A stretch of DNA of 64,000 nucleotides from a virus: positions 1 through 64,000 of IMG/VR virus record IMGVR_UViG_3300046559_000446; one strand, written 5' to 3'. Shown here piece after piece: positions 25,216-64,000 of the stretch; position 1 is the stretch's first letter; each line of letters opens with the position of its first letter. The notes beneath the pieces are model-generated. The model was not told the DNA's origin, made no database searches, and saw only the letters and a program-made list of their open reading frames with translations. A program made the position numbers and the translations under genes.

Positions 25216-25397
25216 AGAACGACCCTGCTCTTAAGCTGGGAATTTCCCTCTCTTCGTCCTGCGACTGGGCGCCGATGTGGTTCGGATCCTACACTGCCTG
25301 CGTCCACGCCTGGCGCTTTATCAATCCCGACTGGGAGAATCATTTGGCCGCCATTTCTTATATGCTGGCGCTTGATAAAGGCATGGTGTTCGGATGA
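25212..25397 (+). CDS. Hypothetical protein between terS and terL
   Basis: GGAG RBS, GTGA overlap. Confidence 0.5.
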   Translation: MKNDPALKLGISLSSSCDWAPMWFGSYTACVHAWRFINPDWENHLAAISYMLALDKGMVFG

Positions 25398-27022
25398 CCG
25401 CGCTCCAGAAGGTCGACCCCCAGGACGTCCTCGATCGCATCGACAAGGAATTTTGCGAGCGGTCCCTGCACGAGTTCGTCAAGCGGGCCTGGAAGGAGGT
25501 CGAGCCGGGCCAGCCGATGATCGACAACTGGCACCTTCCTTATATCTGCGAGCACCTGGAGGCGATCACCGACGGCGCTTCCGTCGATGGCAAGCCCTAC
25601 AACCGTCTCCTTATTAATATCCCTCCAGGAGGGATGAAATCTCTCCTCCTCAACGTCTTTTGGCCAGCCTGGGAGTGGGGGCCGGCGGCGCTGCCCCATA
25701 TGCGCTATCTCTGCGCGTCCCATAACATCGAATTGGTCGAGCGCGACAGCATTCGCATGCGCCGCCTGGTCACCACCCAATGGTACCAGAAGCACTGGGG
25801 CAGTCTGGTGCAACTGACTGGCGACCAGAACTCCAAGACGGTGTTCGAAAACACCCGCTCCGGATGGCGCAGGGCGGTCGCGGCGGGCGCTGACACCGGC
25901 CACCGCGCCGACCGCGTCCTGATCGACGACGCTCTCAGCGTCAAGAACGCCAACTCCGACAGCACCCGCGAGAGCGTCAACCTGTGGTTCAGGGAGTCTG
26001 TCCCGACCCGCCTCAATTCGCCGCGCAAGTCCGCGATCGTCGTCATCATGCAGCGGCTGCACGAGGCCGATCTGTCCGGGATGATCCTCGACAAGAAGCT
26101 CGGCTACGATCACATCATGATCCCGATGCGCTACGATCCGGATCGCGCCCATCCCACCATGCTCGGCTTCACCGACCCCCGCACCATCCCCGGCCAGCTT
26201 TATTTTCCCGCCCGCTTTCCCCTCGACGTGGTCGAACGCGAAGAGCGGATCATGGGGCCGTTCGCCACCGCCGGCCAGATGCAGCAGGCCCCGGTCCCGC
26301 GAGGAGGCGGCGTCATCAAGGACGCCGACTGGATCTTGTGGGACAAGCCGGAATTTCCCGCGCTCGACTTTATCGTCGCCTCGATCGACACCGCCTACGG
26401 CCTGAAGCAGGAGAACGACCCCAGCGCCATGACGGTGTGGGGGGTGTTTTCAGGCGACACCCGCAACGCCGCCACCCGCCTGGTGGATCGCTACGGCCAT
26501 CCCAAGGAAATGCCGGAAGGAGCGCCCAACTCCAGCCTCAACGCCGCCCCGCGCGTCATTTTGATGTACGCCTGGACCGAGCGCCTGTCCCTTTCCGATC
26601 TGGTGGCTAAAGTCGCCCTCCATTGCAAGAAGCTGAAGGTCGACCGGCTGCTGGTCGAGGCCAAGGCCAGCGGCATCAGCGTCGCTCAGGAAATGCGCCG
26701 GCTCTATGGCCACGAGCCTTGGGCGGTTCATTTGATCAACCCTGGCAACCAGGACAAGCTGGCGCGTCTTTACAGCGTCCAGCCGCTGTTCGCGGAGGGC
26801 ATGATTTACGCGCCAGACAAGGAATGGGCGGAAATGGTGATCAGGCAAGTGGCTTCCTTCCCCAAGGCGCTGCATGACGACCTCACCGACACCACATCCC
26901 AGGCCATCCGGCACCTCCGCGACTGCGGCCTCCTCGTCAGATCCGACGAAAGGCTGGCGGAAATGAACGAAGAGGTGGAATATGGTCGTAATCGGCCCCT
27001 TGAACCGCTCTACCCTGGTTAA
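25394..27022 (+). CDS. terL: Terminase large subunit
   Basis: RLLINIPPGGMKS Walker A, VLIDD Walker B, IMQRLHE.DL coupling motif, nuclease SIDTA...HDDLTD. Confidence 0.93.
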   Translation: MTALQKVDPQDVLDRIDKEFCERSLHEFVKRAWKEVEPGQPMIDNWHLPYICEHLEAITDGASVDGKPYNRLLINIPPGGMKSLLLNVFWPAWEWGPAALPHMRYLCASHNIELVERDSIRMRRLVTTQWYQKHWGSLVQLTGDQNSKTVFENTRSGWRRAVAAGADTGHRADRVLIDDALSVKNANSDSTRESVNLWFRESVPTRLNSPRKSAIVVIMQRLHEADLSGMILDKKLGYDHIMIPMRYDPDRAHPTMLGFTDPRTIPGQLYFPARFPLDVVEREERIMGPFATAGQMQQAPVPRGGGVIKDADWILWDKPEFPALDFIVASIDTAYGLKQENDPSAMTVWGVFSGDTRNAATRLVDRYGHPKEMPEGAPNSSLNAAPRVILMYAWTERLSLSDLVAKVALHCKKLKVDRLLVEAKASGISVAQEMRRLYGHEPWAVHLINPGNQDKLARLYSVQPLFAEGMIYAPDKEWAEMVIRQVASFPKALHDDLTDTTSQAIRHLRDCGLLVRSDERLAEMNEEVEYGRNRPLEPLYPG

Positions 27023-27038: not shown

Positions 27039-27194
27039 ATGTTTTTCCGCAATAACCCCACGTCCGTGACGGAGAAGGCTCCAAAAACAGCCGAAAAACC
27101 CGAAAAAGAGGCTGAAAAGCCCGAAAAACGTCGTGAAACCGTCCACGAAGTCGAAAAACACCCCCACCGCGACATGCATGAGAGCAAAAAATGA
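27039..27194 (+). CDS. Small Lys/Glu-rich protein (51 aa)
   Basis: GGAGG RBS; EKPEK repeats. Confidence 0.5.
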   Translation: MFFRNNPTSVTEKAPKTAEKPEKEAEKPEKRRETVHEVEKHPHRDMHESKK

Positions 27195-27898
27195 CCAACG
27201 GACACATCAAACCGTCAATTCAGGCTGCTTTGGACGAGGCCCACCCCACCGGGCCGGTCCATCACCGCCCCAGCATCGCCGGATCGCATAGAAAGCCCGG
27301 CGACGACAACCTTTTCGACCCTCAAGACCCCGAAATGCAGGGCATTCCGCTGGCCGGCGACTTTGGACACCCCCTCCAGACGCCTGAGCAGCGCCGAAAT
27401 ATGGAGGCGCTGCTGGACGACAACCCCACCGGCCCGCGTGATAACGAAGTCATAAAGGCGGCGAAAGACGCCATGATCTACGGGACAGGCTTCGTTCAGA
27501 TGCAAGGCGAGGACCGCATGCCCGGCGGCGACAAGCCAACGGAAATGGAATTGCTGCGTCGGCCTCCAGTCACCAGCGACCTCAAGCAATTCGAAAATTC
27601 CTACGGCACGGATTTTGGCACGGCCATCCTGCAAATGCGGGCCGGCTGCAAAGTCCAGCGCGAAGGATGGAACGGCAAGGATATGTGGATCGCTCTGTCG
27701 GGCGTGGAAGGCCCGCGCGAAGTCTACAGCGAAAAGCTGTGGTCAAAGCCGGCCCGCGATTACGCTCGCGCGCAGCCCGGCGGGACGGTCAAGGTGCTGC
27801 CTTGCTTCATCATGAAGACGGCGACCGGCGAAATCCTGATGGGCTGGCTGGCGAGCCAATCCGACATGCTGGCCCAGGATTGGAGGGTCGTGCCGTGA
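27191..27898 (+). CDS. DUF2829 (Tad2-like) domain protein with a long N-terminal extension
   Basis: C-terminal DFGTAILQMRAGCKVQREGWNGKDMWI...PCFIMKT.......GWLASQSDMLAQDW. Confidence 0.85.
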   Translation: MTNGHIKPSIQAALDEAHPTGPVHHRPSIAGSHRKPGDDNLFDPQDPEMQGIPLAGDFGHPLQTPEQRRNMEALLDDNPTGPRDNEVIKAAKDAMIYGTGFVQMQGEDRMPGGDKPTEMELLRRPPVTSDLKQFENSYGTDFGTAILQMRAGCKVQREGWNGKDMWIALSGVEGPREVYSEKLWSKPARDYARAQPGGTVKVLPCFIMKTATGEILMGWLASQSDMLAQDWRVVP

Positions 27899-29330: not shown

Positions 29331-31865
29331 ATGCCTTTGGTGCCGGGCTTGCCCCTGAACATCCGCCAGACCAACGGCGGCGCGCCGCCGGCTATCTCGC
29401 CGGGCCTTTCCATCAAGCATGATGTGCATAATCCGCCCGGCGTTCCCGAAATGGACGACGCCGGCGCCGTCATCAAGATCGAGCATCCCGACGGCAGCGT
29501 CACTGTCTCCCTCGATGGCCGGTCGCTGGTCGACAAACCGGAACAAAACGTCGGCTGGTTCGCCAATTTGGCCGAGAAGATCAAGGAAGACGATCTCAGC
29601 GCGATCGCTGACGACCTGCTGCGCGGCATTGATGAGGATCTGTCGAGCCGCAACGACTGGATCGAGGAGCGCGCCCAGGGCATCAAGCTGCTGGGCTTCA
29701 AGATCGAAATTCCCAATCTTCAAAGCGCCGCCGATGGCGCTCCGGTCGACGGCATGTCAAAAGTGCGGCATCCGCTGCTGCAGGAGGCCGTGCTCCGCTT
29801 CCAGGCCAACGCCCGCTCCGAAATGCTGCCGACCGACGGGCCGATCAAGATCCGCGACGACGGCAGCAACTCCAACCTTCCTCGTGACGCACTGGCGACC
29901 GCCCTTGAAAAAGACCTCAATCACTACCTCACAGTCACCGCGACCGAATACTATCCCGACACCGACAAGATGTTCCTGCTGCTCGGATTTGGCGGGACAG
30001 CCTTCAAAAAGGTCTACAATTGTCCCTTACGGAACCGACCGGTCAGCGAATCCGTCGATGCTAATGACCTCATCGTCAACGACGCTGCGACTGATCTTGC
30101 GAACGCCAAGCGTGTTACCCATCGTTCCATGATGCGGCCTTCGACGGTCAAGCGCATGCAGATTATTGGCGCTTACCGCGACGTCGATCTCGACACGCCC
30201 AAGCCGCAGAGCCTCGACGCGGCCCAGGAAGCAGCCAAAAACCAGCAAGGGATCCAGGCCACCACCACGAGGCCCGACGACCGTGACCGCGAGATCTACG
30301 AGTGCTATTGCGAACTCGACCTCAAAGGCTATGAGCACAAATACAAGGGCAAGATCACCGGCCTCGAAATCCCCTACCGGGTCACCATCGATCTCTCCAG
30401 CCGCAAAATCCTTTCAATCGTCCGCAACTACGATGAAGACACGAAGGAGCTTCCTGAAGCTCGCGAAACCTTCGTCAAATATATTTTCGTGCCAGGATTG
30501 GGATTCTACGACATTGGCCTGCTCCATATATTGGGGAACACTACCAACGCTGTTACTGCTGCTTGGCGTGAGCTTCTGGATGCTGGAATGTTTAATAACT
30601 TTCCCGGCTTTCTCATGGCTGACACGGGCGCGCGTCAGAACACCAACATCTTCCGCGTCCCGCCGGGCGGCGGCGTTCTCGTCAAGACGGGCGGTCTTCC
30701 CATCAGTCAGGCGATTATGCCGCTTCCTTACCAGCCGCCGTCTCAAGCTTTGATGGCGCTGGTGCAAGACATGGCGCAGACCGGCCAGCGCAGCGGCGGC
30801 ACCGCCGAACTGCCCACCGGCGAAGGCAAGGCTGACATTCCCGTCGGCACCATCCTGGCGATGATCGAGCAGGCCCAGAAGGTGCTCAACAACGTCCACA
30901 AGCGCATGCACTCGGCTCAGTCGCAAGAATTTCGCCTGCTGATACGCTGCTTCAAGGAAAACCCCAAGGCGTTCTGGCAGCGCAACAAGAAGCCGTCCGC
31001 GCCATGGGACGAGCAGAATTTCCGCGCCGCGCTCGATCTGGCCGATCTGACCCCGCAGGCCGATCCGAACACCGCCAGCCATGGCCAGCGCGTGATGAAG
31101 ATCATGGCGCTCAAGCAGTTGCAGCAGCAGAACCCCACCATGTACGACCCGATCGCGATCGACACGGCGGCGCTGCAGGCGCTGGGCTGGAACAATCCGC
31201 AGCAATTCATGGCGCCGCCGGCGGCCCAGGCTGCGCCTCCTCCGCAAATCGTCCAGCAGCAGGCCGAGACGGCGGCCAAGACCCTCACCGCGCAGGCGGC
31301 GATGGTCACCGCCCAGGCGAAAGCCAAGGAATCTGGCGCGCGCGCCATGAACCTGATGGCGGAAGCCCAGACCATGGGCATGGACGAAACCGGCCAGGTC
31401 CAGCAGGATACGCCGGTCGATCAGCACCGCGCCGAATCGGAGCGCATCAAGGCCAACGCGCATGCGCAGCAGGCCGACACCCACCAGTCCGTCATGGGGG
31501 CCAAGGCCCAGGCTGACCTGCTGAACGCCCAGACCCGCCAGCAGGAAGTTCAGTTGAAACTGGGCGAAATGTCGATGAAGGACGCCCACCACGACGACGA
31601 GCAGCGCCTCAAGACGAGGGCGGAAACGATCGACATGGCCAAGCAGGTCATGGACAGCCACGCCGAGAACGCGCGCACCCAGGAGGAAATGCACCACGAT
31701 CACGCCCTGATGGGCCGCGAGCAGGCGCATGAGCACGAGATTGTCGAAAAGACCCACGCGCACGAGAAGGAACTGGAGGGCGTGAAGAAGACGGCGGCGA
31801 TCGCGGTCGCCAAGGCCAAACCCCGTCCGAAGCCAGCCGCCAAGCCGAAGGGTAAGAGCAAATGA
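29331..31865 (+). CDS. Portal protein (P22-like, long C-terminal coiled-coil barrel)
   Basis: 844 aa after terL; HPLLQEAVLRFQA, GTAFKKVY, RVTH, FVKY.F.PG.GFY..G, LLDAG, KRMH. Confidence 0.85.
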   Translation: MPLVPGLPLNIRQTNGGAPPAISPGLSIKHDVHNPPGVPEMDDAGAVIKIEHPDGSVTVSLDGRSLVDKPEQNVGWFANLAEKIKEDDLSAIADDLLRGIDEDLSSRNDWIEERAQGIKLLGFKIEIPNLQSAADGAPVDGMSKVRHPLLQEAVLRFQANARSEMLPTDGPIKIRDDGSNSNLPRDALATALEKDLNHYLTVTATEYYPDTDKMFLLLGFGGTAFKKVYNCPLRNRPVSESVDANDLIVNDAATDLANAKRVTHRSMMRPSTVKRMQIIGAYRDVDLDTPKPQSLDAAQEAAKNQQGIQATTTRPDDRDREIYECYCELDLKGYEHKYKGKITGLEIPYRVTIDLSSRKILSIVRNYDEDTKELPEARETFVKYIFVPGLGFYDIGLLHILGNTTNAVTAAWRELLDAGMFNNFPGFLMADTGARQNTNIFRVPPGGGVLVKTGGLPISQAIMPLPYQPPSQALMALVQDMAQTGQRSGGTAELPTGEGKADIPVGTILAMIEQAQKVLNNVHKRMHSAQSQEFRLLIRCFKENPKAFWQRNKKPSAPWDEQNFRAALDLADLTPQADPNTASHGQRVMKIMALKQLQQQNPTMYDPIAIDTAALQALGWNNPQQFMAPPAAQAAPPPQIVQQQAETAAKTLTAQAAMVTAQAKAKESGARAMNLMAEAQTMGMDETGQVQQDTPVDQHRAESERIKANAHAQQADTHQSVMGAKAQADLLNAQTRQQEVQLKLGEMSMKDAHHDDEQRLKTRAETIDMAKQVMDSHAENARTQEEMHHDHALMGREQAHEHEIVEKTHAHEKELEGVKKTAAIAVAKAKPRPKPAAKPKGKSK

Positions 31866-33496
31866 ACAAGCCCATCCGCGCTGCGCTCCTGACGGCCAAG
31901 GCTCTTTATGACAAGCTGCCTCATGTCGTCGGCGGCGGCGCGCCGATGGCCAAAGGCGGCGTCGTCAAGGACATTCCCCAGATCATCATGCCTGGCGATC
32001 ACCCGGCCCGCATCGACACCCGGCTGGCGACGGGCGCCAAGCCGCTCGATCTGGGGCCAGGGCCGCGCACCGTCAACATGGCGGCGCTGCGCGCGACGCC
32101 GGCGCTGTTCGACAAGAACGTCGACATCCTGCGGCATTATCCGAATGTTTCGAAAGACGCGAGCAAGCTGTCGAACCAGGATCTGTCCGAGCATTTCATC
32201 AAGCACGTCAAGGACAACCTGCTGTGGCTACACGACCAGGTGCCCGACGAAACTCGCCAGCGATCCAAGCTGTGGTACGACGGCGCCAACAAGCTGGCCA
32301 AGGAGTGGGCCAAGAAATACGGCGTTTCGGAGGCGTCAGCCGCCGGCGCGCTGGCCGCGCTGTCGCCGCAGAAAGACTGGTTTCAGAACGTGTCGCTGGC
32401 CGAGCGCGTGTTGCATGCGATGAAGGGGCGCGGCAATAACGCCTACCACGGCGAAACCTTCTCGCCTGAGATGGAGGGCACTTATCGCGGCCTGGACAAG
32501 CTGGCCACCGAGAAGAACGAGCCAATCTTCCAGGCGATTAGAGGCAAGTCGCTGGGCGAAATTGATCAAATGGGTCACATCCCTCGCGACGAGCGCGCGG
32601 TCATGAAGGCGCTGTGGATCCGGATGCACGATCAGACCCATGGCGATCCCGGCTACAAGATCGCCACGCCTGAAGGCCACTTTGGCGAAATCGCCCGCAA
32701 CGCCGACGGCTCGCCATCGCGGGCGGGCTGGGGTTCGCTGGGCGAGATCGGCAAGGCGGTGCAGGCGATCGAGAGCAACGGCGAGCCGACCTTCATGAAC
32801 CGTCTGATGGGCGAGCGCCACAAGGTCCGCAATTTCTACAACAATATTCTCGACCCCAACTCGCAGCATGGCGACGTCACCATCGACACCCATGCGGTCG
32901 CCGCCGGCCTACTGCGCGCGCTGTCGGGCAATTCGCTTGAGGTGGCGCACAATTTCAGCAACTACGCCGGCAAGGGCGTTCCGGGCGCTGGCGGCTCCAA
33001 CGCCACCGGCGTGAACGGAACCTATCCGCTCTATGCCGACGCCTATCGCCAAGCCGCCAAAGAGCGCGGTATACTGCCTCGCGAAATGCAATCGATTACG
33101 TGGGAGGCGATCAGGGGATTGTTTCCCGACACCTTCAAAACTGATAAAAACAACGCCCATATCGACAGCATCTGGAACGACTACAAGCACGGAAGAAAAG
33201 GAATCGACGATGTCCGCAAAGAAATCCACGACTTCGCAGGGGGGATCCGGCCACCGGAGTGGCACGACACCTCTGGAGCGCCTGATGCACCGGTTCGGGG
33301 TGCCAGTGGACCGGGACTCGTACCTGGCCCTGGATCACGCGGGCCAGCCCCCCAAGGAATTATCGGCGGAACAGGAAATGGACCTCCCGGAGCACTTGCG
33401 CCGCAAGCACCCCGGCAGTCGGGGCTGATCTTGCCGCCCGGATACGCCTGTGGCGGCGCAGTCGCCAAAGCATTGGCCGCGACACGGTCGAATTAA
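31862..33496 (+). CDS. DUF7178-type protein with HhH-GPD/DNA-glycosylase-like motifs
   Basis: WYDGA...AAGALAALSPQKDW..N, HKVRNFYNNI, VTIDTHA, YA.AY..AA...G..PREMQSITW. Confidence 0.65.
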   Translation: MNKPIRAALLTAKALYDKLPHVVGGGAPMAKGGVVKDIPQIIMPGDHPARIDTRLATGAKPLDLGPGPRTVNMAALRATPALFDKNVDILRHYPNVSKDASKLSNQDLSEHFIKHVKDNLLWLHDQVPDETRQRSKLWYDGANKLAKEWAKKYGVSEASAAGALAALSPQKDWFQNVSLAERVLHAMKGRGNNAYHGETFSPEMEGTYRGLDKLATEKNEPIFQAIRGKSLGEIDQMGHIPRDERAVMKALWIRMHDQTHGDPGYKIATPEGHFGEIARNADGSPSRAGWGSLGEIGKAVQAIESNGEPTFMNRLMGERHKVRNFYNNILDPNSQHGDVTIDTHAVAAGLLRALSGNSLEVAHNFSNYAGKGVPGAGGSNATGVNGTYPLYADAYRQAAKERGILPREMQSITWEAIRGLFPDTFKTDKNNAHIDSIWNDYKHGRKGIDDVRKEIHDFAGGIRPPEWHDTSGAPDAPVRGASGPGLVPGPGSRGPAPQGIIGGTGNGPPGALAPQAPRQSGLILPPGYACGGAVAKALAATRSN

Positions 33497-33522: not shown

Positions 33523-33786
33523 ATGACGCCGATGTGTTTCTCGCTCGCCTGGCTTGAGAACTTGCTCATTTGGGTCGTCATCGTCGGCGCTCTCATCGCC
33601 ATCCTCCAACTTTTCGTGCCTTGGGTGCTGGCTCAAGTCGGGGATTTGGGCGGCGCTGTCGGCGTCGTCCTGCAGATCGTCAAGATCATTGTCTGGGCGG
33701 TGATCGTCATCTTTGTCATCTATGTGGTCTTCGACCTCATCAGTTGCCTGCTGTCGTCAGGCTCGCTGAAGTTGCCCAAGCCATAA
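33523..33786 (+). CDS. Two-TM membrane protein (holin-like or envelope protein)
   Basis: Two long hydrophobic helices. Confidence 0.7.
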   Translation: MTPMCFSLAWLENLLIWVVIVGALIAILQLFVPWVLAQVGDLGGAVGVVLQIVKIIVWAVIVIFVIYVVFDLISCLLSSGSLKLPKP

Positions 33787-33830: not shown

Positions 33831-35111
33831 ATGTCTGAGGACAGCAAAAAGTTTCGCGCCGCGATGCGCGCCAAGGCCGAGCGTTTGGGGACGGCCTCGT
33901 CCGCAGGCAAGGTCGACTGTTCAAGTTTTGGCGACGTCGAGCAGGATCCGATTCACGCCGATAAGGCTCAAGGCCCGCGCCCGCTATCGAGGCGAGCCTT
34001 CAAAAGCGGCGGCGCCGTCCTCGGCGCTGCGGGCTTCAAGCACGGCGGGCGCGCCGCGCGCAAAAGCGGCGGCATGGCCCAGGCTTTCGGCAACGCCATC
34101 TTCAACAGCAGCATCAAGACAGCCGACAACGATCGCGAAGGTCACGTCGAGCGCAAGGGCGGCATGAAGAGCGGCGGCAGGAGCGGCAAGTTTGGCGGCG
34201 GCGGCGCTGGGCCGATCGGCGGCCAGACTGCAATCACCAATCTGGCGGCGCAGGATGCGCAGAAGCCGATGGCGGCTGCGGCCCAGCAAGCTGGCGTTGG
34301 CGCGGACGGTCCCGTCAAAGCCACCGCCGGCGGCAGCGGCCATATGTTTGGCATGGCGAAGGGCGGTCACCCGCACAAGGCCGAAGACGAGAAGTGCGCC
34401 AAGAAGCTGGTCGCGCATCACAAGGCTGACGGCGGCCCGCTTCCGTCACCTGCCGACGCCGGTCCGCCTCCCGGCCCGCCCGAAGCGACGCCCGCCGGCG
34501 CAGAGCAAGGCCCCGACATCAAGGAGGCGTTGCTTGAGGCTCTGATGCACGAGCACAAAAAGTCGAAGAAGCACAAGAAGGGTCCGCCGATGCCGCCTCC
34601 GGATGACGAGGAAGCGGAAGCGGCCCCGCCTCCCGACGATCAAGCCGGCCCGCCTCCGGGCCTTGGCGCCAAGCGCGGCGGCAAGGCGCGCAAGGATGGC
34701 GGCGGCGTCTACGACCCCAACGTCAAGCTCGGTCCGCGCGATGGCTACGCCAGCGGCGGCAAGACCAAGGGCAAGACCAACATCAATATTATCATTGGCC
34801 AACCTGGTGGCGCCTCTCCTCCCGATGCCGGCGGCGGACCTCCTCCCCCGCTGGCAGGGCCGCCGCCGGGGCCGGGGGCGGTTCCTGTGCCGCCTCCCGC
34901 GCCCCCGCCTGGCTTGCCTCCGGGCGGCGCGATGGGCGGACCGCCTCCGGGCGCGCCGCCGCCAATGCCGATGCCGCCTCCGGGCGGGCCGATGGGCCGC
35001 AAGCACGGCGGTCGAGCGTATCCGATTGAGCATGCTTCTGGCGGCGGCAAGGGCCGTCTGGAGAAAATCAAGGCATATGGGCTGGTTCCGCCCAAGGGGA
35101 GGATGGGGTGA
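33831..35111 (+). CDS. Gly/Pro-rich, probably disordered virion-associated protein
   Basis: About 10 copies of an x-[KAS]-x-GG motif and poly-Pro tracts; GAAGGG RBS. Confidence 0.75.
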   Translation: MSEDSKKFRAAMRAKAERLGTASSAGKVDCSSFGDVEQDPIHADKAQGPRPLSRRAFKSGGAVLGAAGFKHGGRAARKSGGMAQAFGNAIFNSSIKTADNDREGHVERKGGMKSGGRSGKFGGGGAGPIGGQTAITNLAAQDAQKPMAAAAQQAGVGADGPVKATAGGSGHMFGMAKGGHPHKAEDEKCAKKLVAHHKADGGPLPSPADAGPPPGPPEATPAGAEQGPDIKEALLEALMHEHKKSKKHKKGPPMPPPDDEEAEAAPPPDDQAGPPPGLGAKRGGKARKDGGGVYDPNVKLGPRDGYASGGKTKGKTNINIIIGQPGGASPPDAGGGPPPPLAGPPPGPGAVPVPPPAPPPGLPPGGAMGGPPPGAPPPMPMPPPGGPMGRKHGGRAYPIEHASGGGKGRLEKIKAYGLVPPKGRMG

Positions 35112-36497: not shown

Positions 36498-36884
36498 ATG
36501 GCCTTTGCTTCGATGTTGCACGAGGAAGATCCGGTCCAGAAGGTGCTGAAGGAGCTTGGCGACCTGTCAGGGGTCGAAATTTTCCACAATCAATTGCTCG
36601 CTGCGGTCTACATCAGGCCCGATAAAACCAAGAGCGGCCTGTTCCTGGCCCAGCAGACCCTCAACGAGGATCGTTTTCAGTCCAAATTGGGCCTTGTCGT
36701 CAAGAAAGGCCCGCAGGCCTTCATCAGCGGCGGCGAATGGCAGTTCCCTGACATCGAACTGCATGACTGGATCCTGTTTCGCCCCTCGGACGGCTGGAAC
36801 ATCACCGTCAATGGCGTCCTGTGCCGCATCCTGACCGACACGGCCATCAAGGGGCGCATTGCGACGCCCGATCTCATCTGGTGA
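36498..36884 (+). CDS. groES: GroES-like co-chaperonin
   Basis: Mobile loop KTKSGLFLA, GLVVKKGP.AF, ..GD/HDWILF, CRILTD..I.G. Confidence 0.8.
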   Translation: MAFASMLHEEDPVQKVLKELGDLSGVEIFHNQLLAAVYIRPDKTKSGLFLAQQTLNEDRFQSKLGLVVKKGPQAFISGGEWQFPDIELHDWILFRPSDGWNITVNGVLCRILTDTAIKGRIATPDLIW

Positions 36885-39104: not shown

Positions 39105-40019
39105 ATGGCCGTCAATCTTAGCGCCATCAAAGACCTCCTTCTCCCCGGTTTGCGCGGGATCGAGGGCAAGTACGAGATGATTCCGTCTCAGTACGACAAG
39201 ATCTTTACGAAGCACAATTCAAAGATGGCGTTGGAGCGCACGGCTGAAATGCGCTACCTGGGCCTCGCCGCCCTGAAGACTGAAGGCGGCCAGACTCAGT
39301 TCGACAACGGCGCCGGCGAACGCTACGTGTACAATCAGGAACACGTCGAGATCGGCCTCGGCTACGCGATGACCCGCAAGGCCATCGACGACAACCTCTA
39401 TAAGACCCAGTTCCATCCGTCGAACCTCGGCCTGATCGAATCTTTCCAGCAGACCAAGGAAATCTACGGCGCCAATGTGCTGAACACGGCGCAGACCTAT
39501 CTGTCGACGATCGGCGGCGACGGCAAGGCGCTCTGTGCGGTCGATCATCCGATCGACGCCGGCCTCGTTGGCAATACGCCGGCGGTGCAAGTTGATCTGG
39601 GCGAATCGACCTTGCTCAACAGCATGATCGGCGTCCGGACTAATTTCAAAGACCAGGCCGGCTTGAAGGTTTTCGCCCGCGCGCGGAAGTTGATCATCCC
39701 GCCGCAACTGGAACCGGTAGCAATTCGTCTTCTCAAGACAGAATTGCGCCCAGGCACGGCAGATAATGATGTCAATGCAATCCTCTCGGCAAGTGGAGGC
39801 TTGACCGAAAACTTCATGGTCAATGACTTCTTGACCTCGCCCTTCGCCTGGTTCCTTCTGACAAATATCGATGGTCTTTCCTTCATGGAAAGAATAAAGT
39901 TCGAAACCGACATGCAAGTCGATTTCGTGACCGATAATCTATTGGTCAAAGGTTACGAGAGGTATTCGTTCGGTTACTACAACTGGCGAGCCGTCTACGG
40001 CAACTTCCCGACCTCGTAA
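39105..40019 (+). CDS. Major capsid protein (HK97 fold, Mu gpT-like)
   Basis: 304 aa; LLPGL, GYA.TRKAIDDNLY, GGDGKALCA.DHP, KLIIPPQL, ERYSFGYYNWRAVYG. Confidence 0.88.
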   Translation: MAVNLSAIKDLLLPGLRGIEGKYEMIPSQYDKIFTKHNSKMALERTAEMRYLGLAALKTEGGQTQFDNGAGERYVYNQEHVEIGLGYAMTRKAIDDNLYKTQFHPSNLGLIESFQQTKEIYGANVLNTAQTYLSTIGGDGKALCAVDHPIDAGLVGNTPAVQVDLGESTLLNSMIGVRTNFKDQAGLKVFARARKLIIPPQLEPVAIRLLKTELRPGTADNDVNAILSASGGLTENFMVNDFLTSPFAWFLLTNIDGLSFMERIKFETDMQVDFVTDNLLVKGYERYSFGYYNWRAVYGNFPTS

Positions 40020-62163: not shown

Positions 62164-64000
62164 GTGGGTGACATTGGCGAATACAACACATCGAGTGACG
62201 CCAAGGCTCCTACTGCGGCTGCGCCCATTGAAGCTGGAGCTTCCGACGCTGCATCGAGGCCTGACGCACACCCGATCCACGAATACAATACACCAAGCGA
62301 TGCCGCCTCTACGGAGGCAAAGGTTGAGACGCCGAAGCCGCCGCCTGATTACGCCAATATGTCCGGTTGGGATGTCGCTAAAGGCACTGCCAAAGCTTTT
62401 ATTCCGTCAGCAGCCGCGAAAGTGGGCGACGTAGTTTCAGGCTTGGGCAGCGCGGCCAAGCATGTCTATGACACGCATGAGCTTCCCGGCAAAGATCTGG
62501 TTCAAGGCGCCGATGCGTGGGTCAACAGGAAGCTTTCGGACTATGCTCCCGAAACCATGAAGGTGGTCAACAAGGCGATAGGCTACACGCCGCCTTCGGA
62601 CGCGGAGTACGAGGCGAAGGTGAAGCCGGCGACCGAAGCTGCTTCCGCTGCTTACCACAGCACCGTGGACCCCTTCACATCGTGGCCTAAGTTCGCTGAG
62701 AAGATGACCACAGACCCTGTAGATCCGCTGCTCAACGTCGCCAGCGTGGCGATGCCGGCTCTGCGCGTGGCCAGAACCGGAGCCGAATTGACTGGCTTGG
62801 CTTCCAAGGCTGGCAAGGCGGCTGACCTCACTAAGGTGACGACCCCCGGCGAGCTAGGCCAGGCTGTCCACGGCGCTGCGTCTGAGGCGCTCGCCGCGAA
62901 AGATCTCGCTTATAAGAAAGCTTTCAGCCACACCGCTACGTTTGACCCCGCTGCGGTTCAACCCATCATGAGCGAAGTGCAGGCCAATCTCGCCAACACG
63001 CCAAACTTCCCAGGCTTGAACCGTCTTGACAAGCACCCGCACCTCGCGGACGCCAAGGTGGCGTATGACCATTTGGAGAACAGCCTCAAAACCATAGACC
63101 CGAATGATTTCACCATGCCGAACATGGAGAACATCAGGCGCGACCTCCAGCAGAAGGCGATGGAGACAGAAAGCGGCCCCGCTCGCTACATGATCGGCCA
63201 GATGATCGACGGAATCGACACTGGCATCAGCAAGGTGGCCGTGAAGCCGGGAATGTACGGCGGCGACGGCGCTGCGGTGGCGAGCGACATGGCCAAAGCT
63301 CGCAAGTTGAACGTCGACTGGATCAAGCAATTCGGCAGTGAGGCGCCATCGAGCTTCAAGCCCACGATGAACACGCTCCCGAAAGACCTGGCGACGGCTG
63401 ACGACAACCACTTCCACGCCGTCGGCACGGGCCTCGGCAATGCGCTGATGAATGAGGGCAAGGGCGGCGTTCTCTACAGCCATCTCAAGCAGTTTGTGCC
63501 GAAGGAAACACTCGACAATTACCTGCGCCAGCCGATGCTGGCGGGCGATTCGGCAACCGTGATGAAGCGTCTAAACGCGCCCGTCGCGCAGGATGTCTTT
63601 GGCTCCGATCTGGACAAGGTCAAGAGACTAGCCGCCTCACAGGACACCAAGACGCTCATGGGCAAGGCGGCCCCGGTCGCTAAGTGGGGGTTGGAGGCAG
63701 CGGCGCCTTTCGTTGGCCACGCGCTGCTTCCGGGTGGCGGCGGCGCCTTGGCTGGGGCAGCAGTGAGTGGTATTGGGGAGCTTGCGAGCAGGAAGTTTTT
63801 CCCGCACGGCGTCGGCAACAGGGCGCCGCTTTTTGAGCGTTATGCAGGCAAGCCGGCGCCTGCGGCGGCCCTGCCAGATAAAGGATTGCGCGCCGCGCTC
63901 CCGCTGGTGAGGCCAAGTAGCTACACGCAATTCCTTAAGCCTTCAACCTACAAGGGCGGGAGGCTTCCTGCAGCAGCCATCGCCGGCCATCGCCCGCCTG
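62164..64000 (+). CDS. Large internal virion/ejection protein, partial (open to the window end)
   Basis: Not in the track; GTG 62164 after GGAGGG; MGDIGEYNTSSDAK...MTTDPVDPLLNVASV...; no stop seen in this frame to 64000. Confidence 0.75.
   Translation, partial: MGDIGEYNTSSDAKAPTAAAPIEAGASDAASRPDAHPIHEYNTPSDAASTEAKVETPKPPPDYANMSGWDVAKGTAKAFIPSAAAKVGDVVSGLGSAAKHVYDTHELPGKDLVQGADAWVNRKLSDYAPETMKVVNKAIGYTPPSDAEYEAKVKPATEAASAAYHSTVDPFTSWPKFAEKMTTDPVDPLLNVASVAMPALRVARTGAELTGLASKAGKAADLTKVTTPGELGQAVHGAASEALAAKDLAYKKAFSHTATFDPAAVQPIMSEVQANLANTPNFPGLNRLDKHPHLADAKVAYDHLENSLKTIDPNDFTMPNMENIRRDLQQKAMETESGPARYMIGQMIDGIDTGISKVAVKPGMYGGDGAAVASDMAKARKLNVDWIKQFGSEAPSSFKPTMNTLPKDLATADDNHFHAVGTGLGNALMNEGKGGVLYSHLKQFVPKETLDNYLRQPMLAGDSATVMKRLNAPVAQDVFGSDLDKVKRLAASQDTKTLMGKAAPVAKWGLEAAAPFVGHALLPGGGGALAGAAVSGIGELASRKFFPHGVGNRAPLFERYAGKPAPAAALPDKGLRAALPLVRPSSYTQFLKPSTYKGGRLPAAAIAGHRPP

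Follow-up and report, generated by a model that had tools for sequence, protein, structure and literature searches.

Gene organization of the portal-adjacent locus

The window, i.e. the whole stretch of 64,000 nucleotides (nt) analysed here, comprises positions 1 to 64,000 of the viral record IMGVR_UViG_3300046559_000446 (IMG/VR). Directly behind the portal gene of this phage lies an open reading frame (ORF) for a protein of 544 amino acids (aa), which belongs to the Pfam family DUF7178 and is predicted to adopt the helix-hairpin-helix (HhH) fold of HhH-GPD glycosylases. A small second gene is nested in the +1 frame of its 3' part. The features of the locus are the following, with model confidence given as predicted local distance difference test (pLDDT):

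31862..33496, + strand: DUF7178 ORF (ORF list and translation), 544 aa, composed of linker, glycosylase-fold core, overprinted tail and C-terminal motif
31997..33265, + strand: conserved DUF7178 core, residues 46-468, of which residues ~105-468 form the predicted two-lobed HhH-GPD-like fold
32453..32761, + strand: inserted helical sub-domain, residues ~198-300, within the glycosylase fold
32786..32896, + strand: HhH-like element with catalytic-type dyad; by DSSP of the model, helix 309-315, an M-G317-E-R turn and helix 320-330 starting with H-K321
33210..33428, + strand: nested gene in the +1 frame, 72 codons (MSAKK...LERLMHRFGVPVDRDSYLALDHAGQPPKELSAEQEMDLPEHLRRK...), overlapping the DUF7178 ORF at its last helix and tail
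31862..31996, + strand: N-terminal 45 residues, with helix 3-18 (IRAALLTAKALYDKL) followed by a low-confidence linker containing MAKGG; pLDDT 32-54
33266..33442, + strand: Gly/Pro-rich tail of the DUF7178 frame, residues 469-527, mostly overprinted; pLDDT 25-46
33443..33493, + strand: C-terminal motif YACGGAVAKALAATRSN, helix 534-542, downstream of the stop codon of the nested gene
29331..31865, + strand: portal gene, 844 aa, SU10-type (PF23899 SU10_portal, E-value 1e-19; phrog_1216)

The ATG of the DUF7178 ORF shares bases with the TGA of the portal gene (aaATGAac, read directly), which bears out the overlap noted in the original prediction, a reading of the window from its letters that proposed a packaged glycosylase-like enzyme. 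The gene for the large terminase subunit (TerL, 25394-27022) is located upstream of the portal gene and a candidate major head protein is encoded at 39105-40019 (weak match, phrog_371, E-value 4.8e-11); these neighbours place the ORF within the head-gene block. As is characteristic of polyvalent-type proteins, it is thus encoded together with the portal and terminase packaging genes. Among ten sampled distant viral loci, a recognised portal is the ORF immediately upstream in six (five SU10-type, one P22-type). No match to MuF (PF04233) was detected in the phage genome at E-values up to 0.1, and none in the DUF7178 protein.

Family membership and distribution

The 544-aa protein scores 102.8 bits with PF23802 (DUF7178; cut-off 27, E-value 2.8e-29), which was the only family returned from Pfam at E-values up to 1, and it also matches phrog_3842, a family of unknown function. 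PF23802 is present in all homologues listed. Exhaustive HMMER scoring yielded 3,135 representative clusters at E-values up to 0.001, 1,587 of them below 1e-30. The family thus exceeds 3,000 clusters at 50% identity, and identities of 45-60% are maintained across thousands of clusters.

The unit corresponding to residues 46-468 is found alone, at the C-terminus of 700-900-aa proteins, or within proteins of 2,000-3,800 aa; a search for shorter homologues returned fragments only, no minimal domains. DUF7178 polypeptides of relatives also contain ART-PolyVal, InPase, LPD22 and ParB_N domains, all of which typify the polyvalent proteins described by Iyer et al. 2017 (PMC5512222). A named carrier is gp40 of Roseobacter phage CRP-738, encoded two genes after its portal. 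Related loci were present on contigs assigned to Planctomycetota, Bacteriovoracaceae, Rhodobacteraceae (Jannaschia), Flavobacteriales, Verrucomicrobiota, Saccharibacteria and an uncultured archaeon.

For the arrangement of portal and glycosylase-like gene no described function had been known at the outset. A literature search found no paper mentioning DUF7178, and a search for HhH-GPD together with phage and virion gave nothing relevant. The arrangement itself is nevertheless common rather than unique, since DUF7178 is a widespread Pfam family and a standard module of phage polyvalent proteins. It ranks among the commonest unexplained modules beside phage portals.

Predicted fold and the Lys/Asp pair

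An AlphaFold2 model of the 544-aa protein, built on 50 homologues, has a mean pLDDT of 81, with most of residues 45-468 above 90 and residues 12-34 and 470-536 below 50. The modelled core is all-helical and consists of two lobes with a central helix-hairpin-helix, as in HhH-GPD enzymes. In a search of 48,161 PDB representatives performed independently of Foldseek, all of the 20 best rows were HhH-GPD enzymes, including AGOG (7.6), EndoIII-3 (6.6), MagIII (6.5) and Escherichia coli EndoIII (5.8; 181/211 residues) as well as OGG1, Mag1, ROS1, AfAlkA, MutY, NTHL1 and MIG. When the 951 best chains of Foldseek were rescored, Qng1 (8.7) and AGOG (8.2) were obtained with the unrelated chains at 3.0 or lower. 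Searches of BFVD returned uncharacterised phage proteins only, and those of the ESM Atlas DUF7178 clusters only. The inserted sub-domain is weakly similar to DNA-binding integrase domains. A C-terminal PREMQSITW helix, earlier likened to Ogg-type enzymes, exists in the model (residues 406-420) and is nearly invariant.

The putative active site is formed by a Lys and an Asp located 21 residues apart at 32822-32887, exactly where the original prediction had placed them (K321 codon, 32822-32824; D342 codon, 32885-32887). The ORF reads G317-E-R-H-K321-VRNFYNNIL...VTI-D342-T-H, and according to DSSP helix 320-330 is followed by the loop DPNSQHGDVTI, after which D342-T-H-A opens helix 343-350. Bona fide Nth genes from five bacterial genomes, all of which have DUF7178 loci as well, encode GVGRKTANVV...(I/V)AVDTH; the spacing from Gly to Lys is 4 in both, and that from Lys to Asp is 18 in Nth versus 21 here. 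The likeness to the Lys/Asp pair of endonuclease III is therefore real at the level of the motif, as judged from this register. As in HhH-GPD enzymes, K321 opens the second helix of the HhH element, an equivalence based on motif register and hhalign rather than on residue-level structural alignment, and D342 begins the helix located behind the HhH and a Gly/Pro-containing loop. According to the paper on the Qng1 structure, this Lys and this Asp were the sole invariant residues when Qng1/QNG1 was aligned by structure with representative HhH DNA glycosylases (PMC9881137).

G317, K321, D342, T343 and H344 are invariant in the 50 homologues and at least 97% conserved in 118 sequences of less than 60% pairwise identity. 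By itself, a Lys-Asp spacing of 21 residues carries no meaning; it is the family-wide conservation, together with the HhH-GPD-like predicted fold, that raises the pair above chance. A fold other than HhH and a non-conserved Lys/Asp pair had been set beforehand as outcomes that would speak against a glycosylase; the predicted fold came out HhH-GPD-like, and both residues are conserved across the family.

Like Qng1 acting on queuosine-5'-monophosphate, the protein might be an N-glycosidase of free nucleotides or their derivatives, delivered to destroy or change a host metabolite or an immune signalling nucleotide and not directed at DNA. This appears quite improbable: the lead of Qng1 over Ogg2 and AGOG is less than 1 Z unit and amounts to a tie, the DTH motif and the Lys-Asp spacing are nearer to Nth (21 here, 18 in Nth, 32 in Qng1), and the inserted sub-domain weakly resembles domains that bind DNA. 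DNA is most likely the substrate.

Nested gene in the +1 frame

The 72-residue product of the nested gene ends with LERLMHRFGVPVDRDSYLALDHAGQPPKELSAEQEMDLPEHLRRKHPGSRG and is clearly homologous to a separately called 82-aa protein of a related locus (L008:7259-7504). A hidden Markov model (HMM) of its 45-residue core (consensus LLELMKRFGLPLTRENYLDLAYLGKPPEELSAEEEADLPEQLRRK) matched 87 loci; in every one the match is in the +1 frame with respect to the domain, none being in the other two frames, and the core begins 7-10 nt after the domain end; 15 more distant domain loci were without the nested gene according to the same HMM. Over 120 aligned nt, substitutions at codon positions 1, 2 and 3 of the nested frame number 198, 99 and 590, respectively, and amino-acid identities in the nested, DUF7178 and third frames are 0.735, 0.455 and 0.479, respectively. 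Codon-position bias and the higher identity in the +1 frame indicate that selection acts on the small gene, which, judged from these substitution patterns, is under purifying selection. Over the 120 nt tested, the DUF7178-frame tail (residues ~470-510) changes in the manner of a non-coding frame, and 21 of 62 relatives have tails of at most 5 aa, i.e. their ORF stops right behind the domain.

An ATG is located 30-75 nt upstream of the nested core in 66 of 70 distinct loci, 62 of which have a Shine-Dalgarno (SD)-like site, often AAGGAG or GAGGAGG. In a model of the product, helices 21-29, 35-42 and 53-58 have block pLDDT values of 81-89. Public gene calls list exactly these small proteins as 'hypothetical protein' in loci whose big ORF terminates directly behind the domain; the fully nested copy of the window is absent from public annotation, and gene callers miss the gene wherever it lies fully inside the larger ORF.

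The constant +1 frame and the fixed distance of 7-10 nt past the domain end, with no case in frame 0 among the 87 loci, would also be expected if programmed +1 ribosomal frameshifting joined the peptide to the domain, giving a longer enzyme and no separate protein. We regard this as barely credible in view of the in-frame ATG and SD-like sites, of stop codons just upstream in the +1 frame in several loci, and of public gene callers that call these exact small proteins where the overlap is short. In addition, no slippery site and no hungry or stop codon is evident at 33240-33300, and no natural in-frame fusion of domain and peptide was found among 381 family proteins. Owing to the lack of both a fusion and a frameshift signal, the small product is read as a separate, translationally linked partner.

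A role of the small putative partner as DNA mimic was considered and finds no support in its charge (median net charge of the core -2; whole protein of the window +2).

Terminal peptides and the sibling copy

The peptides MAKGG (residues 29-33; 31946-31960) and YACGG (residues 528-532) near both ends of the ORF had been taken for a virion-style tag of the form x-A-x-GG. Both are present as described, but a generic x-A-x-GG tag is rejected because A.GG is not enriched in the proteins of this phage (35 observed versus 29 +/- 5 in shuffles). The narrower pattern [YM]A[SKC]GG, which was picked after seeing the data, occurs 6 times in four structural-region proteins versus 0.17 expected; in giant DUF7178 proteins [MFYHWL]A.GG is not enriched (23 versus 22.8).

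In 17 of 26 distinct sequences from close relatives, A.GG precedes the domain start by no more than 35 aa, and tails end in A.GG.[IV][DA][KR]AL..T (11 loci in one survey). In L008, this terminal motif closes the small protein, not the enzyme, a placement that would make sense if enzyme and small protein travel together.

A sibling copy of the gene (P0381, 738 aa) is encoded outside the window at 100654-102870 of the record (G000; locus L130:4655-6871). It carries a 195-residue N-terminal ART-PolyVal-like module (27.7 bits, under the cut-off of 31.2), and the N-terminal peptide of the window copy (…ALLTAK.LYDKL…GGGAPMAKGG) corresponds to its internal linker after this module. The two copies differ by an indel of the ART-like module right after codon 2. 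Given the role as linker in the sibling copy and the motif positions in relatives, the peptides are read as module-boundary or terminal motifs of the clade; they could serve as processing sites or loading signals.

Similar peptides occur in three further proteins. At 33831-35111 (+ strand), a 426-aa Gly/Pro-rich protein without Pfam or PHROG match contains GMAKGG, GYASGG and HASGGG and is possibly a scaffold-like or internal head protein. At 62164-64000 (ORF extending to 64296 in G000), a 710-aa protein has RYASGGAVKG ~50 residues before its C-terminus, closely resembling the YACGGAVAK in the end region of the DUF7178 ORF. In the giant DUF7178 protein P0132 (2,334 aa), the InPase domain (691-826) has FAKGG on one side (residue 674) and MAEGG on the other (residue 846), a hint that borders between modules carry A-x-G-G in some polyvalent proteins.

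The record G000 (138,254 nt; window 1-64000) is listed with direct terminal repeats and as 100% complete. It consists of two collinear related phage genomes of ~69 kb arranged head to tail, with segments of 70-94% nucleotide identity, and no exact terminal repeat of 50-1000 nt was found in it; two strains were probably assembled into a chimera, or the record represents a mixed concatemer.

Proposed function

With a probability of about 0.58, the ORF encodes a divergent HhH-GPD-type N-glycosylase, possibly also a lyase. It would be produced along with the portal, in all probability be packaged and delivered as other polyvalent-protein modules are, and have a small protein as its partner. According to the model, the core of ~420 residues would represent a very divergent enzyme of the EndoIII/Ogg/AGOG/Qng1 type, cleaving N-glycosidic bonds and equipped with an extra helical sub-domain. 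The helix-hairpin-helix element would contact the nucleic-acid backbone, and the cleft separating the lobes would hold a flipped-out nucleotide. D342, which opens the helix behind the DPNSQHGDVTI loop, would help to break the bond between base and sugar. K321, at the beginning of the second helix of the HhH, may either orient the sugar or form a Schiff base nicking the strand as in EndoIII and OGG1.

The protein is probably taken up by the procapsid and then delivered along with the DNA. Gene position, translational coupling to the portal and polyvalent fusions suggest packaging. For polyvalent proteins in general, packaging and injection have been predicted (PMC5512222), and indirect support comes from a different member of this class, gp47 of phi24B, which proteomics detected in virions (bioRxiv 10.64898/2026.04.10.717836). 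Of the packaged enzyme that had been proposed, the glycosylase part has gained an HhH-GPD-like predicted fold and a conserved Lys/Asp pair, and packaging and injection are suggested by this context.

The nested product, probably made from its own start codon, would most likely bind the enzyme as stoichiometric partner, be it as an inhibitor keeping the enzyme off phage DNA, as a chaperone or as a loading adaptor. To our knowledge, no protein partner or inhibitor of an HhH-GPD enzyme has been described.

Several observations weigh against a glycosylase of this type. Foldseek gave no significant match against the PDB (E-value 0.25 or worse, the most probable rows being AGOG and Qng1), phmmer gave nothing significant among the PDB sequences, and the family profile found no chain there. 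PF00730 had zero matches in the whole phage genome, while 14 of 14 control genomes were matched. Alignment with Nth/MutY by hhalign was not significant (P 0.04-0.13, insert kept or removed), though it still sets K321 and D342 on the catalytic columns (GVGRK...VDTH), with or without the insert. The hairpin reads L-M-G317-E-R versus the canonical h-x-G-h-G, its first Gly being invariant and the second replaced, and the domain is near neutral (median isoelectric point 7.2). Virion proteomics covering a DUF7178 protein was not found in the literature and data searched. Finally, DUF7178 remains constant while neighbouring modules vary, a pattern expected of a carrier or structural module. With fold and motif evidence positive and the sequence-profile routes not significant, the link to HhH-GPD holds at the level of fold and motif, not of sequence family. 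That an unrelated all-helical domain matches the fold fortuitously and carries the K...DTH motif by coincidence is considered very unlikely.

The constancy of DUF7178 amid variable attached domains could alternatively denote a non-catalytic head protein analogous to MuF/SPP1 gp7, in which a glycosylase-derived fold holds DNA or the portal and anchors effectors and the genome end, with the conserved Lys and Asp being structural or contacting DNA. A location directly after the portal in most sampled loci, the absence of a MuF gene from this phage, and the unusually high conservation (45-60% identity across thousands of clusters), which would be expected if the virion could not do without the protein, are all in line with such a function. 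Binding alone, however, needs no exact Lys/Asp dyad, yet both residues, like T343 and H344, show at least 97% conservation, and the tightly coupled small partner gene suits a controlled activity better than a scaffold. A purely structural role is therefore judged unlikely.

Beyond the glycosylase as such, one may tentatively envisage a two-part weapon delivered from the head: an active glycosylase or lyase injected to act on host or defence-altered DNA, plus a small protein that silences it until ejection or loads it into the capsid. We consider this rather doubtful; if true, thousands of uncultured phages would possess a type of injected effector that is new as a class.

For the divergent glycosylase favoured here, the fold link with intact Lys and Asp makes DUF7178 a testable enzyme hypothesis (K321, D342), and the conserved nested gene, a probable regulator or adaptor of the enzyme, offers a second handle. 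If active and packaged, the protein would be a DNA (or nucleotide) glycosylase delivered at phage entry, bearing on virion DNA repair, attack on host DNA or counter-defence. We class as new the very divergent HhH-GPD-like family in a known polyvalent or head-cargo setting, plus the undescribed overprinted partner gene.

Further genes of the phage

Directly 3' of the DUF7178 gene, a very hydrophobic 87-aa protein without Pfam or PHROG match is encoded (33523..33786, + strand), in place of which the closest relatives (L003-L005) have an 84-aa ORF. Between terminase and portal genes, 27191-27898 (+ strand) codes for a 235-aa protein with a C-terminal Tad2-like (Thoeris anti-defence 2) domain (PF11195, E-value 1.7e-20) and an N-terminal extension of ~140 aa. 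A GroES/Cpn10-like protein is encoded in the head-gene block at 36498-36884 (+ strand; PF00166, E-value 5.5e-4, just under the cut-off; phrog_3188, E-value 7e-7). Genes for DNA modification (e.g., 7-deazaguanine genes) were not present among ten early genes checked.

Comparison with known systems

DUF7178 shares with EndoIII (Nth), OGG1, Ogg2 and AGOG the predicted two-lobed helical fold, the small members being almost fully superposable. As in EndoIII-type enzymes, the same Lys is located at the start of the second HhH helix, and the Asp opens the next helix after a loop, with I/V-D-T-H as in Nth. Unlike these enzymes, DUF7178 is without significant sequence similarity to them, has an insert of ~100 residues and a conserved N-terminal extension of 60 residues, reads G-E-R instead of G-h-G in the hairpin, and displays no iron-sulfur cluster motif. 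Furthermore, its gene belongs to a cluster of phage head genes, whereas theirs are cellular repair genes, and it is known here from sequence and model.

Qng1/DUF2419 (PDB 7u07, 7uk3), a eukaryotic and bacterial glycosylase for salvage of queuosine-5'-monophosphate that acts on the free nucleotide and not on DNA (PMC9881137), is among the closest structural neighbours of the DUF7178 model. It differs by its Lys-Asp spacing (32 versus 21 here), by the lack of a sequence match and by the viral context here.

With polyvalent proteins (PMC5512222), DUF7178 shares the neighbourhood of portal and terminase genes and occurs in members of 2,000-3,800 aa. The window copy has one recognisable module, in contrast to the definition of this class by at least two biochemically disparate domains, whereas the sibling copy (ART-like plus DUF7178) and many homologues have several domains. 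The 2017 paper on polyvalent proteins mentions a glycosylase domain nowhere (PMC5512222).

MuF/SPP1 gp7 proteins share the position directly after the portal and the principle of a constant module with variable effector domains. DUF7178 differs from them by another fold, an enzyme-type dyad and the lack of a match to the MuF profile.

In Rz/Rz1, a larger gene likewise contains a small +1-frame gene that has a start site of its own and is conserved across many phages. The proteins and their function are unrelated, however, and the nested gene described here follows an enzyme-like domain, for which it would provide a putative inhibitor, chaperone or adaptor.

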